DNA from: an uncultured Dehalococcoidaceae bacterium
GTDB taxonomy: Bacteria; Chloroflexota; Dehalococcoidia; Dehalococcoidales; RBG-16-60-22
NCBI GenBank assembly: GCA_964615345.1
Contig: CAZTMR010000001.1
Coordinates: 45,355-109,354 of the forward strand
Direction of reading: 5' to 3'
Length of the DNA: 64,000 nucleotides
Numbering within the stretch: position 1 is the first letter of the stretch; each line of letters starts with the position of its first letter. The position numbers and the translations under genes were made by a program. Of the stretch, positions 49,057-54,424 are shown piece after piece. Below the pieces are notes generated by a model. That model was given only the letters and a program-made list of their open reading frames with translations, did no database searches and was not told the origin of the DNA.

Positions 49057-49097
49057 TAGAAAAGCCAGCTTTACCGTAAGGCTACGGCAAAGCTGGC
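49057..49097 (-). terminator. intrinsic terminator after tubulin-like gene A
   Basis: Minus-strand RNA: GCCAGCUUUGCCG-UAGCCUUA-CGGUAAAGCUGGC-UUUUCU. This is a 13-bp stem (one G-U pair) starting 24 nt after the stop codon, followed by a U tract. Confidence 0.7.
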
Positions 49098-49120: not shown

Positions 49121-50293
49121 TTACAGCAGTGAAGGTATATCCTTGGAAGTATCTTCGATAACTCTGAGCTTGGTCTCCGTCTCCTCCTGCCTTCTCTTGA
49201 ACTCCGGGATAAGCCCGGTCGATTTGATATAGTAGCCTCTCACCTTCTCCAGGTCGCTCAGCTCGGAAAGAATGACGGTAACATCCAGCGCGCCCCTTTC
49301 CCGGGGATAATCGCCGTTTCTAATCATCGCTTCAGGAGCAAGGTCCCTCATGTAGTCCCCCAGAGCCTTTGACAGGTCCATATTCATTTCTTTAGACGGC
49401 CCGGAAAGGAGGTAAAGTGCCCTGCGGGCGTCCACCGGGTTGCACTTCAGTGACAACTCGCTGATAGCCTCATCCATGGTCTGGATGCCTTTCAGCGTTT
49501 CATTTCCCTTCTTACGGAAATCACCGCGCTCGCGGGGGAACTTGAACAGGGGGATATCGGAACGGCCGTAACCGATAACCGTCCAGCCTACCAGCGTCTG
49601 GATGATATCCCCGGCGTCAAGTACTTTTGAGGCTATGTACTTGGACTTTTTCTCTTCACCGGCGCAGAGCATATTGTAGAAAGGCTCCGCAATCATGGCA
49701 TTAATCTTGGACAGATTGCCTTTTATCGATGAATCTTTGCGGACGAACCGCTGGTTATCTACCAGGAACACGGCATCGGCTATTGAATAGCATGACTTCA
49801 AACAGGTGGCCGTGTTGTACACGGTGCGGTCCTCTGTGGTCTCCTCATGCTCGAAAGGTAAAACTATGAGGTTATATACTGGCTTATCCGCGTAGCGCTC
49901 TTTGATTTGCTGTGTCATCACGGCTACGGACCCGGAACCGGTGCCGCCGGCGGCACTGGCGATAAGTAAAAAGGCGTCCGTTTCAAAAAATCTCTTTGTG
50001 GTGCGGATGGAATCAATCACCTTATCGGCGTCTTCTCTGGCTATCTCCGCCCCCAGCTCGTTTATTTTCCCCACGCCGTGCCCGCCGGTCTTGCGCCCGC
50101 CGATAAGGATACGGTGCTGGTACCCACGCTGTATGTTGTGTAACCCGCTCAGGTCGGCCGCATCAGTATTTACGGCGTACGCTCCGGTAATAATTTCTAT
50201 CCCACGACGGCTGCGTGCCATTTTGTTTAGCCTGGAAAACTCGTCGGCAATTCTTCCGCCGCACTGCCCAAAACCGACAACTACTAACTTCAT
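49121..50293 (-). CDS. tubulin/FtsZ-superfamily GTPase, CetZ-like core with an FtsZ-like DIPSLL C-terminal peptide (paralog A)
   Basis: 390 aa. T1 loop MKLVVVGFGQCGGRIADEF; GHGVGKINELGAEIARED; T4 signature AAGGTGSGS (residues ~114-122); PVYNLIVLP; FLVDN; T7-like VLDAGDII (~224-231); GDYPRE; C-terminal ..KDIPSLL. Confidence 0.85.
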   Translation of the reverse strand: MKLVVVGFGQCGGRIADEFSRLNKMARSRRGIEIITGAYAVNTDAADLSGLHNIQRGYQHRILIGGRKTGGHGVGKINELGAEIAREDADKVIDSIRTTKRFFETDAFLLIASAAGGTGSGSVAVMTQQIKERYADKPVYNLIVLPFEHEETTEDRTVYNTATCLKSCYSIADAVFLVDNQRFVRKDSSIKGNLSKINAMIAEPFYNMLCAGEEKKSKYIASKVLDAGDIIQTLVGWTVIGYGRSDIPLFKFPRERGDFRKKGNETLKGIQTMDEAISELSLKCNPVDARRALYLLSGPSKEMNMDLSKALGDYMRDLAPEAMIRNGDYPRERGALDVTVILSELSDLEKVRGYYIKSTGLIPEFKRRQEETETKLRVIEDTSKDIPSLL

Positions 50294-50321
50294 TTCTCAC
50301 CTCGGTAGCAGAGTTACGTTC

Positions 50322-50351
50322 ATTGTATGCATAGTACCGGACTATTGTCAA
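50322..50351 (-). promoter_or_regulatory. sigma-70-type promoter candidate for tubulin-like gene A
   Basis: Minus strand has TTGACA (50351-50346), an 18-nt spacer, then TACAAT (50327-50322). GAGGTGA SD lies before ATG 50293. Confidence 0.5.
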
Positions 50352-50377
50352 TCTTTTGTCATCACCCAAAAAAGTTA

Positions 50378-50406
50378 TTGAAAAACGGTTTACCCTATAT
50401 TAAAAT
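50378..50406 (+). promoter_or_regulatory. sigma-70-type promoter candidate for the coiled-coil genes
   Basis: TTGAAA at 50378-50383 and TAAAAT at 50401-50406 with a 17-nt spacer. AAGGGG SD lies before ATG 50427. Confidence 0.45.
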
Positions 50407-50426
50407 TAGGAAACTAAGGGGTAGCA

Positions 50427-52574
50427 ATGGCTAAAGAAACGTCCCGGGACTCCATTATCAATGCGGAAAACAATATCGACGCTTTTGAAAAAGCGGTTGC
50501 CGAGGCAGAAAAACTAAGCCAGGCCGCCAGAAGTGCCGCAGAGGCCTCTACCCGGGCTGCCCAGGAATCTATCAGCCGGGCGGAGGCGATCGGCAAAAAG
50601 GCGAAAAAAGCGGCTGAAAGCTCTGCTGAAGCGGCAAATCAAGCGGTTGAACGCGCCCGCCAGATCTGTAATGAAGCCAGAGTGGCGGCTGAGGAGTCTA
50701 TACGAAAGGCTGAGGAGGCCATAAAGCAGGCGGAGGAATCCGCCCGGGTACCCAAGGAAGCCGCCAGGGGGACCGCCAGAAAGTTCCGGGAAGCGATAGA
50801 GCGTGCTGAAGAGACGAGCCGGGAAGCAATGGAAGCGGCGGAAGCTTCTTTCCTCGCTTCACAGGAAGGGCTGAATCGGGTAGAGGAAATAAGTACTGGC
50901 GCTAAAGAACTGGCTGAATCATCATCCCGGGCGGTGGACGAAGAACTGAAAAAAGCCCAGGAAGCCAGCAGGCTGGCGCGGGAAGTAGCAGAAAGCTCCA
51001 TCAGAGAAGCCAGGCAGGCCTCGGCAAGGGCGGAAAAGGCGAGCCGGGAAGCCCGGGAAGCCGCCGCCGCCGCCGCCAGGGAAGCCCGGGAAGCCGCCAG
51101 CAAAGCGGAAAAGACCGGCCAGGCCACCAGAGAAAACGCGGAAACTTCAGCCAAGGCTACCCGTGAGGTAGCGGAAAAAGCCGAACAGCTCAGCCGGGAA
51201 GCCCGGGAGGTGGCAGAAACCTCTTTAAAGGCCTCTCAGGCTACCACGCAGCGGGTGGAAGAGATAAGCAAGGAAATCAAATCGGTCGCGGCAGCTTCCG
51301 CACAATCGAACCGGCAGGCCGTCAGCAAGATAGAAACATTGAATCGGGACACCAGGCTGGCAGCGGAAGAAGCCTCCAGAGTTGCCCGGGAAGCCGCCGC
51401 TGAATCGACCAGTGCATCACGGGAAGCCATCAGTAAAGTGGAGAGTATCGGCAGTGAAATCAAGACCATGGTCGAGTCAATGGTGAAATCTTTCGGGGAA
51501 GAGATAAGCCAGGTCGAAGCCAAAAGCCAGGAAACGAAAGAGACGGCGGAAGCATCGGTAAAAACGGCACAGGAAGTCTCCGAGGCATCTGTAATCGCTT
51601 CTCAAGAGGCCATAAGCCGGGTGGAAGAAATATGCCAGACCACGCTGCAGACCACCGGAGAATCGGCGAAGTCGGTACAGGAAGCCAGTGACGAAGCGAT
51701 AAAAACCTCCCGGGAAGCGGCGGAAACATCCGTCAGGACGTCTCATGAAGCCATCAGCCAGGCGGAAAAGATAAAGCTGGAATCCAGGGAAAGTGCGGAA
51801 AATCTGTCCCGGTCAGCCATGGAAGCGGTCCAGGGAGCGATAAAAGCGGCGAAAGAAGCCGCGGAAGCCGTTGCCCGGACCTCGCAAGAAGCCATTGAAC
51901 GGGCGGAAGAGATGAACCGGACGACACAGGAAACCGCTGAATCCTCCCGGAAAGCGGTGCGGGAGGCTACCAGACTGGCCATCAAGACCGCCCGGGAAGC
52001 GGCGGAGAACTCGGCAAAAAATTTCGCCGATGCCATAAGCCGGGCGGAAGCCATCGGCAGAGAAACCAGGGAAGCTACCGAGGCTTCGGCCAAAGCGGCC
52101 CGGGAAGCGGCTGAGTCCACGGTAAGGGCGGCTCAGGAAGCCACGGAGGCTGCCGCTCGCGTTGCCAGAGAAGCGGCGGCGGTATCGGTGAAAGCGTTCC
52201 AGGAAGCTATCAGCCGGGCGGAGGCTTCCGGTAAAATGGCGCGGGAAAACGCGGAAGCGTCTCTCAAAGCCTTTGAGAGAGCGGTAAACAAAGATGCGGA
52301 GATTAAAGAAGAGGCTTCCCAGATACTTGAGTTCACGGAGCCGGCGGCGGAAACCAGAGAAGACGCGGCGGAAGACTCGTTGAAGGCCTTTGAAGAGGCC
52401 ATAAACAAAGCTAAAGAGAGCAATGCCGCGGAAAAGAAAAAAGCCAGGCCCTCCAGAGGCAGGGAGAAAATAGAGGCCAGGCTGGATTTTCTCTCCCGTA
52501 TGTATGAGTCAAAGTCAAACGGCGGACCGGAAGAAGACACCGGGAACCAGGATGCTGAAAATGCCCGTAAATAA
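50427..52574 (+). CDS. 715-aa Ala/Glu/Ser/Arg-rich all-helical repeat protein (hendecad-based coiled-coil candidate, CC1)
   Basis: Uninterrupted 715-codon ORF with SD and promoter. There is no signal peptide or TM segment and almost no Pro, Gly or aromatic residues until the last ~45 residues. A recurring (Q/R)EAIS(R/Q)(A/V)E anchor motif is present. The opposite strand carries only fragmented Ala/Ser-rich ORFs. Confidence 0.75.
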   Translation: MAKETSRDSIINAENNIDAFEKAVAEAEKLSQAARSAAEASTRAAQESISRAEAIGKKAKKAAESSAEAANQAVERARQICNEARVAAEESIRKAEEAIKQAEESARVPKEAARGTARKFREAIERAEETSREAMEAAEASFLASQEGLNRVEEISTGAKELAESSSRAVDEELKKAQEASRLAREVAESSIREARQASARAEKASREAREAAAAAAREAREAASKAEKTGQATRENAETSAKATREVAEKAEQLSREAREVAETSLKASQATTQRVEEISKEIKSVAAASAQSNRQAVSKIETLNRDTRLAAEEASRVAREAAAESTSASREAISKVESIGSEIKTMVESMVKSFGEEISQVEAKSQETKETAEASVKTAQEVSEASVIASQEAISRVEEICQTTLQTTGESAKSVQEASDEAIKTSREAAETSVRTSHEAISQAEKIKLESRESAENLSRSAMEAVQGAIKAAKEAAEAVARTSQEAIERAEEMNRTTQETAESSRKAVREATRLAIKTAREAAENSAKNFADAISRAEAIGRETREATEASAKAAREAAESTVRAAQEATEAAARVAREAAAVSVKAFQEAISRAEASGKMARENAEASLKAFERAVNKDAEIKEEASQILEFTEPAAETREDAAEDSLKAFEEAINKAKESNAAEKKKARPSRGREKIEARLDFLSRMYESKSNGGPEEDTGNQDAENARK
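50559..52286 (+). repeat. degenerate in-frame tandem repeats (11-residue modules plus 14-residue spacers; best copies have a 47-aa / 141-bp period)
   Basis: Anchor-motif spacings counted by hand are 25, 36, 47, 47, 47 and 58 residues (14 + 11n) between residues ~249 and 595. The more degenerate N-terminal copies are spaced 32 and 43 residues (21 + 11n). Confidence 0.7.
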
Positions 52575-52647
52575 GGTATCATTGACCTTGAAACGGTCTT
52601 CAGATAAACACAGTAAATAATGCAGACAATCGTTTAGGAGGTAGTCG

Positions 52648-53178
52648 ATGGCCGAGCCGAAGGGAGCTAAAAAAGTCAGCGAAGAGCCTGTGGAGGAGAT
52701 TGTGGAAGAGACAACTGCGGCGCAGGAAGAAGCTCTGGAACCGCCGGAACCGGCGGTAGAAGAAGAAACTACGGACACAAGGCCGCTCGATGAAGTCCTG
52801 GGACAGGCGGAAAAAGCTTACGCCGCTTACATGGAAGCACAGCGCCAGGTAGCCAACGCGTACCGGGGAAACGAGCAACAGATAGCCCGGGCATACCGTC
52901 GGGCGGAGCAGCAGGCGGAAAGCGCCTGCGAGGCGAGCATCAACGAAGCCATAAAGGCCCGGGAAGAGACCATTAACCAGGCGCTGAAAGAACGCGATGA
53001 CGCTATCACCCAGGTGGAAAAGGCCTACCGGAAGACGAAAGAACAGGCGGAAAAAACCTGCGAAGCTGAAATTGATAAAGCCTGGAAAGCGAGAGAGCAC
53101 GCCGTCGAGCAGGCCTGGCAGCTGCGCGAGGAAACTCTCGAGCAGGCCTGGAACATCTACGCCAAGCTGTCAAGATAA
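52648..53178 (+). CDS. 176-aa protein: acidic Glu/Pro-rich N-terminus plus an uninterrupted hendecad coiled-coil (CC2)
   Basis: Strong SD (TAGGAGGT) 5 nt before the ATG. Residues 55-175 parse into 11 consecutive 11-mers. It lies 73 nt downstream of CC1 with no obvious terminator between them. Confidence 0.65.
   Translation: MAEPKGAKKVSEEPVEEIVEETTAAQEEALEPPEPAVEEETTDTRPLDEVLGQAEKAYAAYMEAQRQVANAYRGNEQQIARAYRRAEQQAESACEASINEAIKAREETINQALKERDDAITQVEKAYRKTKEQAEKTCEAEIDKAWKAREHAVEQAWQLREETLEQAWNIYAKLSR
52810..53172 (+). repeat. eleven consecutive 11-residue (33-bp) protein repeats
   Basis: EKAYAAYMEAQ/RQVANAYRGNE/QQIARAYRRAE/QQAESACEASI/NEAIKAREETI/NQALKERDDAI/TQVEKAYRKTK/EQAEKTCEAEI/DKAWKAREHAV/EQAWQLREETL/EQAWNIYAKLS. 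Confidence 0.7.
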
Positions 53179-53248: not shown

Positions 53249-54424
53249 CTATAATAGGGAAGGGATATCTTTAAGGGTAACTTCTATGCCGCGGGTCTGG
53301 CTCTCTATCCCTTCCTGTCTCTTCTTTAGAGTGGAGATAAGATTGATCGCCTTGGTGAAGTAACCCCGTATTTTGGCCACGTCACTGAGCTCGGAAAGAA
53401 TTACCGTAACCTCCAGAGCTCCCCCCTCCCGGGGATAATCGCCGCTCCTGATTACCGCTTCCGGGGTCAGGCTCTTCAGGTAGGTGCCCAGTTCCTTGAT
53501 CAGATCAACGTTCACTTCTTTGGCCGGCGCGGAAACCAGGTATAAAGCCCGCTTTGAGTCCACCGGGTTACACTTCAGGGAGAGCCCGCTTATCGCCTGG
53601 TCCATGGTCTGGGTCCCTTTCTGCGTTTCCGTGGCCTTGTTCCGGAAGTCCCGCGTCCGCTTGAAAAGCCCCCGGGTAAAGGAAAGGTTTGACCTGCCGT
53701 AGCCGATAGTCGTCCAGCCGGAAACGGTCTGGATAATGTCGCCGGCATCAAGTATCTTGGCGCCGATGTGCTTGTGCTTTTTCTCCTCCCCGGCGCAGAG
53801 CAAGTTATAAAAAGGCTCGGTAATGGTGGTGTTGATGCGGGAGAGATTGCTGCGTATGGGGGAATCTTTCATCACGTACCGCTGGTTGTCTACCAGAAAC
53901 ACCGCGTCCGCCACCAGATAAGAAGATTTAAGGCAGGTGGCCACGTTATACACCGTTCTTTCTTCGGTCGATTCTTCGTGTTCAAACGGAAGTACAATGA
54001 GATTGTATACCGGCTTGTCCACGTAGCGTTCTTTAATGTGCTGGGTGATTACCGGCACCGAACCGGACCCGGTGCCGCCGGCGGCGCCGGCAATGAGCAG
54101 GAAGGCGTCCGCTTCAGTAAAGCGGCGGCTCGTCCGGATAATCTCAATGACCTTGTCACCGTCTTCTTTGGCTATCTCCGCGCCCAACTCGTTTATCTTC
54201 CCCACGCCGTGACCGCCGGTCTTGCGCCCGCCAATCAGGATACGGTGTTGATAGTCCGGCCTTATGCCGGTCAGACCGCTCAGGTCGGCCACGTCTGTAT
54301 TTACGGCAAAAGCTCCGGCGATGATGTCAATCCCGCGCTGGCCGCGCGCTTTCCTATTCAACCGGGCAAACTCATCGGCGATTCTTCCGCCGCACTGCCC
54401 GAAACCAACTACCACAATTTTCAT
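53249..54424 (-). CDS. tubulin/FtsZ-superfamily GTPase, CetZ-like core with an FtsZ-like DIPSLL C-terminal peptide (paralog B)
   Basis: 391 aa, colinear with paralog A. MKIVVVGFGQCGGRIADEF; GHGVGKINELGAEIAKED; GAAGGTGSGS; PVYNLIVLP; FLVDN; ILDAGDII; GDYPRE; ..KDIPSLL. Confidence 0.85.
   Translation of the reverse strand: MKIVVVGFGQCGGRIADEFARLNRKARGQRGIDIIAGAFAVNTDVADLSGLTGIRPDYQHRILIGGRKTGGHGVGKINELGAEIAKEDGDKVIEIIRTSRRFTEADAFLLIAGAAGGTGSGSVPVITQHIKERYVDKPVYNLIVLPFEHEESTEERTVYNVATCLKSSYLVADAVFLVDNQRYVMKDSPIRSNLSRINTTITEPFYNLLCAGEEKKHKHIGAKILDAGDIIQTVSGWTTIGYGRSNLSFTRGLFKRTRDFRNKATETQKGTQTMDQAISGLSLKCNPVDSKRALYLVSAPAKEVNVDLIKELGTYLKSLTPEAVIRSGDYPREGGALEVTVILSELSDVAKIRGYFTKAINLISTLKKRQEGIESQTRGIEVTLKDIPSLL

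Follow-up and report, generated by a model that had tools for sequence, protein, structure and literature searches.

A gene module composed of a CetZ-like tubulin gene, the genes CC1 and CC2 and a second CetZ-like tubulin gene was found at about 130 Dehalococcoidia loci, one of which lies in the 64,000-nucleotide stretch of DNA analysed here (the window; uncultured Dehalococcoidaceae bacterium, assembly GCA_964615345.1, contig CAZTMR010000001.1, positions 45,355 to 109,354). CC1 encodes a long repeat protein which, judged from the comparisons given below, constitutes a new, previously undescribed family. We propose that CC1 is the large subunit of a non-heptad coiled-coil scaffold, formed by CC1 and CC2, that works with the paired CetZ-like tubulins of the peptidoglycan-less Dehalococcoidia, and we put the probability of this interpretation at roughly one half. 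The four genes in the window are (coordinates are those of the window):

49121..50293, minus strand: CetZa, CetZ-like tubulin paralog a, 390 amino acids (Pfam Tubulin 1.9e-31, CetZ_C 2.4e-15)
50427..52574, plus strand: CC1, open reading frame for a 715-amino-acid all-helical repeat protein
52648..53178, plus strand: CC2, 176-amino-acid companion, directly downstream of CC1 in nearly all loci (characterised by structure prediction and hydrophobic period)
53249..54424, minus strand: CetZb, CetZ-like tubulin paralog b, 391 amino acids (Pfam Tubulin 1.3e-31, CetZ_C 1.2e-20)

The tubulin-like neighbours of CC1, assumed in an earlier note made from the letters of this sequence, proved to be real. 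Both proteins carry a GTPase domain together with a CetZ_C domain (Tubulin 110 bits; CetZ_C 57 and 74 bits, cut-off 21.6) and have CetZ1 and CetZ2 as their nearest structures, which makes them members of the CetZ family. The best match of CetZb in the PDB was CetZ1 of H. volcanii (4b46, 6.4e-46), followed by 4b45 (CetZ2, 5e-29) and 3zid, and the FtsZ matches were far weaker (1e-11 or worse). With few exceptions, the CetZ-like proteins of Dehalococcoidia have the C-terminal sequence K-D-I-P-S-L-L (49121..49141 and 53249..53269 in the window), a tail reminiscent of the C-terminal peptide by which FtsZ recruits FtsA, ZipA or SepF.

CC2 starts 73 nucleotides after CC1 and was predicted to have an acidic disordered N-terminus followed by a single 129-residue helix (residues 47-175; AlphaFold2 (AF2) predicted local distance difference test score (pLDDT) >90 without an alignment). 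Its hydrophobic period of 3.65-3.66, that of hendecads, was found in all orthologs tested. The orthologs have 160-190 amino acids, with a variable, acidic N-terminus and conserved Tyr/Trp positions, and no Pfam family was found for the window protein or its orthologs. At one locus (L158) a CC2-like gene stands alone beside a pentapeptide-repeat gene.

The orthologs of CC1 (466-823 amino acids) come from the approximately 130 loci. A genome scan anchored on CetZb gave 74 loci, nearly all labelled Dehalococcoidia, Dehalococcoidales or Chloroflexota, and according to tblastn the genes are ordered eno-gap-CetZb, CC2-CC1, CetZa-dnaX in about 50 of the 74, the CC1 orthologs there being 27-70% identical. 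In the variants, CC2-CC1 comes after two CetZ genes in tandem (L052, L061, L074 and L139), or the CC genes are absent and there is either a tandem CetZ pair (L053, L058 and L062) or just one CetZ gene (L066, and L067 of Dehalogenimonas). Some loci labelled Deltaproteobacteria (L053, L056 and L058) or Gemmatimonadales (L011) show the Dehalococcoidia order gap-CetZ-CetZ-dnaX, which suggests that the labels of these metagenome-assembled genomes result from binning errors. The tandem CetZ pair of L053, L056 and L058 includes a highly divergent copy (44-46% identity), whose C-terminal residues are ELPTLD in L053 and L058.

An independent metagenome scan was anchored only on the C-terminal motif of CC1, RL[ED]xL[AS][RK]MYE, and gave 80 loci, none of which had CC1 in an unrelated context. 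A CetZ-like gene adjoins CC1 in 76/80, three lie on short contigs that break off within or behind CC2, and the last (L098:800-3197) is the only locus with truncated CC1 and CC2, present as remnants of 99 and 145 amino acids that adjoin recombinase genes (integrase-/resolvase-like), which points either to a mobile element that disrupted the genes or to a contig that is chimeric. At L156 a 561-amino-acid CC1 homologue with 25-residue repeats and an acidic tail was found together with a CC2 homologue and a CetZ-like gene, and the neighbours of this trio are nitroreductase and methyltransferase genes, unlike the usual neighbourhood. This indicated that CC1, CC2 and CetZ move as a unit.

No match to the window CC1 was found in Pfam or NCBIfam. 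An exhaustive HMMER search with CC1 against 1.84 billion representative proteins gave 53 matches, all of the same family, shorter than CC1 (at most 564 amino acids, most of them below 400) and partial, covering mostly the N- or the C-terminus, and no distant relatives. No exact copy of the CC1 sequence was found among public assemblies, and CetZb turned up solely on a Logan contig of 2.8 kb. Thus, as far as can be detected, the CC1 family is narrow and confined to the CetZ-like module. A search for full-length homologues was dominated by low-complexity candidates and gave one chimeric match (P0001); a search with the C-terminal profile gave short fragments only (P0002-P0017). P0001, a protein of 499 amino acids on a 3.5 kb contig of the Joint Genome Institute, has about 150 CC1-like N-terminal residues with 25-residue repeats followed by a non-repetitive, globular-looking region, and may be a true fusion or may have arisen as a chimera in assembly.

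CC1 is a genuine gene under purifying selection, with a ratio of nonsynonymous to synonymous substitution rates (dN/dS) of 0.15-0.25 in close ortholog pairs. The protein contains 166 Ala, 128 Glu, 78 Ser, 65 Arg, 53 Lys, 39 Thr, 15 Gly, 10 Phe, 4 Pro, 1 Tyr and no Trp, and its net charge is -22. Kyte-Doolittle analysis in 19-residue windows (highest mean 0.44) gave no signal peptide, transmembrane or other hydrophobic segment, and CC1 is a cytoplasmic protein. The AT skew reaches +0.31 over the gene (window positions 50001..52000) owing to a purine-rich sense strand (GAA, GCA and AAA codons). Three Ser/Ala/Leu-rich open reading frames on the minus strand (50639..51154, 51743..52120 and 52133..52582) overlap CC1; these long antisense frames are by-products of its codon usage.

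The earlier note had described a recurrent motif with its Ile (or equivalent) at residues 274, 299, 335, 360, 396, 443, 490, 537 and 595, spaced by 25, 36, 25, 36, 47, 47, 47 and 58 residues according to a rule of 14 + 11n. Positions and spacings were reproduced exactly, the rule holds family-wide for the repeat-start spacings of 52 orthologs, and the motif expression occurred 8 times in CC1 as compared with 0.035 expected (2000 shuffles, maximum 1). Of the 47-residue super-repeat proposed there, what stands is a local feature of the C-terminal half of the window ortholog; it is not the unit of the family, which has 25 residues. When BLOSUM-scored autocorrelations were compared with 300 shuffles, full-length CC1 gave the strongest signal at lag 25 (z = 14.7), followed by lag 11 (z = 10.3), lag 36 (z = 10.2) and lag 47 (z = 9.3). 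Lag 51, given in the earlier note as the repeat length of the Streptomyces proteins Scy and FilP, gave z = 0.4 (-1.9 in the N-terminal and 3.2 in the C-terminal half). Residues 1-260 form a pure 25-residue array (z = 12.9 at lag 25 and strong signals also at 50, 75, 100 and 125), and residues 261-620 gave z = 10.5 at lag 47, 10.0 at lag 94 and 8.5 at lag 58. The Fourier spectrum of hydrophobicity had one dominant peak, at 3.56 in the N-terminal and 3.60 in the C-terminal half, with a power of 370-430 vs about 75 for the 95% shuffle maximum (five to six times higher). The same signature, a lag-25 z of 10-26 and a hydrophobic peak at 3.57-3.60, was present in 53/53 orthologs. With this hydrophobic period the CC1 helix is expected to be nearly unsupercoiled. 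A classical heptad coiled coil of the crescentin type was rejected, the peak lying at 3.56-3.60 and not at 3.5, and so was an ER/K single alpha-helix domain: CC1 does show an excess of i,i+4 pairs (z = 11.4), but its apolar stripe is strong.

The basic unit of CC1 is thus a 25-residue repeat of a 14-mer and an 11-mer (7+7+11) that makes 7 helical turns, and extra copies of the 11-mer give rise to the spacings of 36, 47 and 58, the 47-residue unit being a 25-mer with two extra 11-mers. Parsing with a hidden Markov model built from sixteen perfect 25-mers of ortholog L052 gave 12 in-phase 25-mers from residue 20 to about 319 (starts 20+25k) and later repeat heads at 331, 356, 392, 439, 486, 533, 591, 616 and 655, with one to three extra 11-mers between them. 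The repeat-start spacings in the 52 orthologs were 25 (302 times), 50 (94), 47 (55), 36 (33), 33 (23), 22 (22), 75 (20) and 11 (16), and off-phase spacings were rare. Insertions and deletions in CC1 come only in phase-preserving quanta of 11 or 25 residues. No tandem repeat of 75 or 141 nucleotides was found in CC1 at the DNA level, which indicated that the repeats are old and that the periodicity is maintained at the protein level.

From 560 ungapped repeats the consensus S/A/F-Q-E-A-I-S-R-A-E-E-I-S/G-K-E for the 14-mer and A-K-E-A-A-E-A-S-(A/I/V)-K-A for the 11-mer was obtained, and the inserted 11-mers are copies of this second part (AKEAAEASxKA). Written in short, the 14-mer reads SQEAISRAEEISKx. 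Core positions 4 and 8 are 83-89% Ala, and surface positions are conserved like the core (E9 0.89, E17 0.74, E20 0.74, E3 0.72 and R7 0.72). When the repeat is plotted on a helical wheel with 25/7 residues per turn, an unbroken arc of about 160 degrees, made up of twelve positions, is free of charge. In it, one ridge of Ile/Val lies at about 288 degrees (position 11) and the other at 43-58 degrees (positions 5 and 23), some 115-130 degrees away, with a groove of Ala, Ser and Gly between them; the remaining arc consists of Glu, Lys and Arg. Opposite charges at i,i+4 were counted 102 times in CC1 as compared with 42 expected (z = 11.4), a dense network of Glu-Arg/Lys salt bridges.

Along the protein the following elements were delimited, all on the plus strand:

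50484..51383, plus strand: N-terminal block of 12 in-phase 25-mers, residues 20-319 (starts 20+25k, lag-25 z = 12.9)
50751..50753, plus strand: Pro109 at position 15 of its repeat, putative kink or hinge (88% Pro among 34 orthologs; AF2 helix interrupted at 106-109)
51384..52286, plus strand: C-terminal repeat region, residues 320-620, 25-mers with 1-3 extra 11-mers (autocorrelation, parse and alignment)
52287..52466, plus strand: acidic, then Lys-rich linker, residues 621-680 (conservation 0.38-0.40, pLDDT about 50)
52467..52511, plus strand: short amphipathic C-terminal helix KIEARLDFLSRMYES(K) with the motif RLxxLxxMYExK (alignment, AF2 helix 677-697)
52512..52571, plus strand: acidic disordered tail (alignment, pLDDT <50 for residues 696-715)

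The length of the N-terminal 12-repeat block is fixed in all orthologs. Residues 26-300 are gap-free in an alignment of 34 family members, and the distance between F20 and P109 is exactly 89 in 33/33 orthologs in which both motifs were located. Other conserved sites in this alignment are Gly148 (85%) and Gly602 (76%). Length differences between orthologs were found around residues 376-475. The length from F20 to the C-terminal motif varies between 541 and 777 residues and is not cleanly quantised, because this span includes the non-helical linker, and only the N-terminal block is a candidate for a 'ruler'.

The hydrophobic/aromatic patch that the earlier note had pointed out near the C-terminus, KIEARLDFLSRMY, was confirmed at nucleotides 52467-52505. 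It is the most conserved element of CC1: in 22 diverse sequences R, L, L, M, Y and E of the motif are invariant and K is nearly invariant, and even the distant L156 ortholog keeps it as RLESLTRMY. The suggestion that this patch serves in targeting or partner binding is plausible in the sense of docking. Short invariant amphipathic helices on flexible tethers are typical docking motifs. The acidic tail and the overall negative charge would argue against a membrane-targeting helix at this end of the protein.

The searches for homologues gave only fragments, so that no deep alignment was available for AlphaFold, and CC1 was modelled by AF2 from the single sequence. The model was almost all helix (about 94%), with a pLDDT of 67 and a predicted TM score (pTM) of 0.36, and only its secondary structure is usable; helix breaks were seen at 106-109, 228-230, 410-413, 542-546, 599-602 and 671-676. 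A Foldseek comparison of the model with the PDB was discarded as uninformative, given that it returned generic long helices with TM scores of at most 0.2 (top match the Umb1 toxin, 8w20). The long, non-heptad, nearly unsupercoiled helical rod deduced in the earlier note is borne out by the hydrophobic period, the helical model and the mixture of 11- and 14-residue modules.

Based on these features we suggest the following mode of action. The CC1 helices would stay straight and lie side by side; a face with two ridges and a groove of small residues suggests that each helix packs against two neighbours. CC1, possibly with CC2, would then form multi-helix bundles or fibres of up to about 100 nm and not a two-stranded heptad coiled coil. 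The 12-repeat N-terminal block of fixed length, with its kink at Pro109, may be the core for assembly or partner binding, and the invariant RLxxLxxMYExK helix on its flexible Lys-rich/acidic tether would dock the rod to a partner, most likely CC2, the adjoining CetZ-like proteins or filaments made of them. Taken together, the genes of the module probably serve to control the shape or support the envelope of the wall-less cells, comparable to CetZ1, which controls cell shape in Haloferax.

Several observations weigh against this proposal. CetZ-like genes occur in related genomes without CC1 and CC2 (L053, L058, L062, L066 and L067), indicating that CetZ-like proteins can do without CC1, and the KDIPSLL tail persists in these same genomes and is therefore no CC1-specific handle; its partner would probably be something other than CC1 or CC2. 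The order of the housekeeping genes on either side (dnaX, gap and eno) is conserved as well, and the adjacency of CC1 and CetZ could therefore be largely a gene order inherited throughout the clade. Large hydrophobic residues make up only 14% of CC1, which is low for a stable coiled coil, and with a pTM of 0.36 the topology of the model is not trustworthy and the oligomeric state cannot be read from it. The trio at L156, the rearranged variants and the scan anchored on the CC1 motif argue against mere synteny.

If the gene order is nevertheless only inherited, CC1 could be an autonomous, intermediate-filament-like coiled-coil-rich protein in the sense of crescentin, FilP or Scy that assembles by itself into fibres or a lattice. 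Its non-heptad, Ala-rich core is similar to the hendecad rods of FilP and Scy (PMC9858780), and the synteny of the whole region including dnaX, gap and eno as well as the related genomes that have CetZ-like genes but not CC1 are compatible with this idea. We regard it as unlikely given that CC1, CC2 and CetZ have stayed together in a different genomic setting (L156) and through local rearrangements, that the CC1-anchored scan gave no CC1 in an unrelated context (76/80 with a CetZ-like neighbour), and that CC1 has neither a DivIVA-like head nor a 51-residue repeat. A closer partnership with the tubulins is assumed if CC1 is a periodic side-binder or molecular ruler, comparable to tropomyosin, stathmin or tektins, with one 25-mer per subunit of a CetZ-like protofilament. 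The 12 in-phase repeats would then gauge or stabilise a filament segment of defined extent, probably a curved one, and thereby set its length or curvature, and CC2 and the RLxxLxxMYExK helix would cap or anchor the complex. Such a role would fit the invariant length of the N-terminal block in all orthologs and the surface positions of the repeat, which are as conserved as the core without homogenisation of the repeats at the DNA level; these conserved charges are equally explained by intrahelical i/i+4 salt bridges. It appears quite improbable to us, since a helix of 25 residues spans about 3.7 nm, less than the roughly 4.0-4.4 nm from subunit to subunit in filaments of the tubulin family, and the irregular 36/47/58 spacing in the C-terminal half cannot fit a fixed lattice.

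The 11-residue module also raises the idea of a surface coat of the phasin, LEA, apolipoprotein or perilipin type (on a membrane, an inclusion body or an interface) or of a stress protectant. The Pfam model Phasin_2 (PF09361, gathering threshold 24.9 bits) matched 19/34 CC1 orthologs with a best E-value of 8e-15, in three of them above the threshold (L020 44.4, L005 38.5 and L022 33.9 bits), ApoLp-III gave marginal matches in 3/34 (best E 0.0067), and apolipophorin-III was among the PDB profile matches (0.023). The window CC1 had no Phasin_2 match even at E<=1, and L052, L061, L028 and L036 had none either; the NCBIfam phasin models matched none of the 34 orthologs, and reversed sequences kept 16-18 bits, so that part of the Phasin_2 score is due to composition and periodicity. 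We regard the matches as a probable convergence of A/E/K-rich amphipathic helices. Kinship with LEA group 3 proteins and with apolipoproteins, both raised in the earlier note, was not upheld, there being no LEA_4 match among the 34 orthologs at E<=1, only 4 Pro and an apolar face that is mostly Ala/Ser, and its membrane-lining amphipathic helix is weakened by this same face, the charge of -22 and the Kyte-Doolittle maximum of 0.44. Given that a coat would also leave the linkage to CetZ-like genes unexplained, we consider it very unlikely. Finally, the skewed composition and the long antisense frames could be taken to mean that CC1 is a spurious, non-functional open reading frame in purine-rich, low-complexity DNA. 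This is refuted by conservation, with intact orthologs of similar size at about 130 loci, the dN/dS of 0.15-0.25, invariant terminal motifs and insertions and deletions that keep the phase, and its probability is negligible.

The window also carries dnaX, NAD-dependent ligA, type I gap, eno, lysS and serS. Around the module the following signals were noted, those for transcription and translation start being consensus matches only:

49064..49097, minus strand: strong terminator-like hairpin between CetZa and dnaX (15-bp stem, 8 GC pairs, T-run)
50322..50351, minus strand: CetZa promoter-like site TTGACA-18-TACAAT, divergent
50378..50406, plus strand: CC1-CC2 promoter-like site TTGAAA-17-TAAAAT
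about 50416, plus strand: Shine-Dalgarno-like AAGGGG ahead of CC1

The promoter-like sites of CetZa and CC1 stand back to back, and another such consensus match lies ahead of CetZb. Given the terminator-like hairpin after it, CetZa is probably monocistronic.

CetZ-like proteins have been reported in Chloroflexota-Dehalococcoidia (Santana-Molina et al., PMC9871819), and in the same study archaeal tubulin-like genes were often surrounded by unknown coiled-coil genes; the CC1 family is not described there. The Dehalococcoidales are without the dcw cluster and peptidoglycan, yet mraZ-mraW-ftsA-ftsZ are kept (PMC10608941), so that the two CetZ-like genes come on top of the FtsZ used in division. 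The 'FtsZ/tubulin GTPase' btf_0551 of D. mccartyi BTF08 and the nearby hypothetical protein btf_0548 were abundant in disc-shaped cells of the pure culture and were not quantified in barrel-shaped cells of the co-culture (PMC8163811). The region btf_0548-btf_0551 could represent this module in an organism that is in culture. In the literature searched, no explanation was found of how a disc shape is built in peptidoglycan-less Dehalococcoidia, including the bioremediation organism Dehalococcoides.

To our knowledge no partner protein of CetZ-type tubulins is known. With a CC1-CC2 scaffold as the preferred interpretation, the two proteins travelling with CetZ-like genes are concrete, clonable partner candidates for the shape of wall-less Dehalococcoidia. 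Independently of its function, CC1 offers a natural 7+7+11 (25/7) periodicity with insertions and deletions quantised to helical phase, which is useful for the structural biology and design of coiled coils. If the rod binds along CetZ-like filaments, the principle of tropomyosin and microtubule-associated proteins would be extended to prokaryotic tubulins, and if CC1 were in addition a ruler, it would be the first helical side-binder matched to the lattice of a tubulin homologue from bacteria or archaea, and a shape-determining device in wall-less bacteria.

Among known systems, Scy and FilP share with CC1 a long bacterial rod that mixes heptads and hendecads, is Ala-rich in the core and is nearly unsupercoiled (PMC9858780), the hendecads of CC1 being the one in each 25-mer and the extra 11-mers. 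Membership in this family, as proposed in the earlier note, did not hold up: the lag-51 signal is absent from full-length CC1, and the DivIVA-like N-terminal domain common to Scy and FilP (PMC9858780) was not found by Pfam in the window CC1 and 34 orthologs (E<=1). CC1 has a unit of 25 residues (7+7+11, 3.57 residues per turn) with 11-mer insertions instead of 51, no detectable homology, and belongs to another phylum and a tubulin-linked context. It is a Scy/FilP-like rod in principle and not a family member.

With phasins CC1 has in common the A/E/K/T-rich amphipathic helix, and some orthologs exceed the threshold over the full 100-position model; it differs in being 5-7 times longer and tied to CetZ-like genes, and in that the window protein has no match. 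The best PDB matches of the CC1 family profile were the designed long-helix bundles 4uos (1e-9) and 4tql (8e-9), followed by four-helix coiled coils of methyl-accepting chemotaxis proteins (2e-4). These designs and the chemotaxis receptor 2CH7 resemble CC1 in their small-residue cores, Glu/Lys/Arg surfaces and long helices with more than one packing neighbour. The similarity is an analogy of packing and not homology, and no MCPsignal Pfam match was found in CC1.

Tropomyosin, stathmin and tektins are comparable in that the periodicity goes far beyond the needs of a coiled coil, the surface charges recur with each repeat and the neighbour forms polymers. There is no homology to them, the 25-residue period (about 3.7 nm) has no obvious match in the spacing of the tubulin family and the C-terminal spacing of CC1 is irregular. 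The coiled-coil proteins encoded next to archaeal CetZ- and tubulin-like genes (Santana-Molina et al. 2023, PMC9871819, where the Dehalococcoidia neighbours were not analysed) are described as mutually unrelated, and none has been reported with the repeat or the C-terminal motif of CC1. What CC1 shares with them, and with Arcadin-4 next to crenactin, is the arrangement itself, in which uncharacterised coiled-coil genes stand beside the genes of non-canonical tubulin or actin homologues of prokaryotes.

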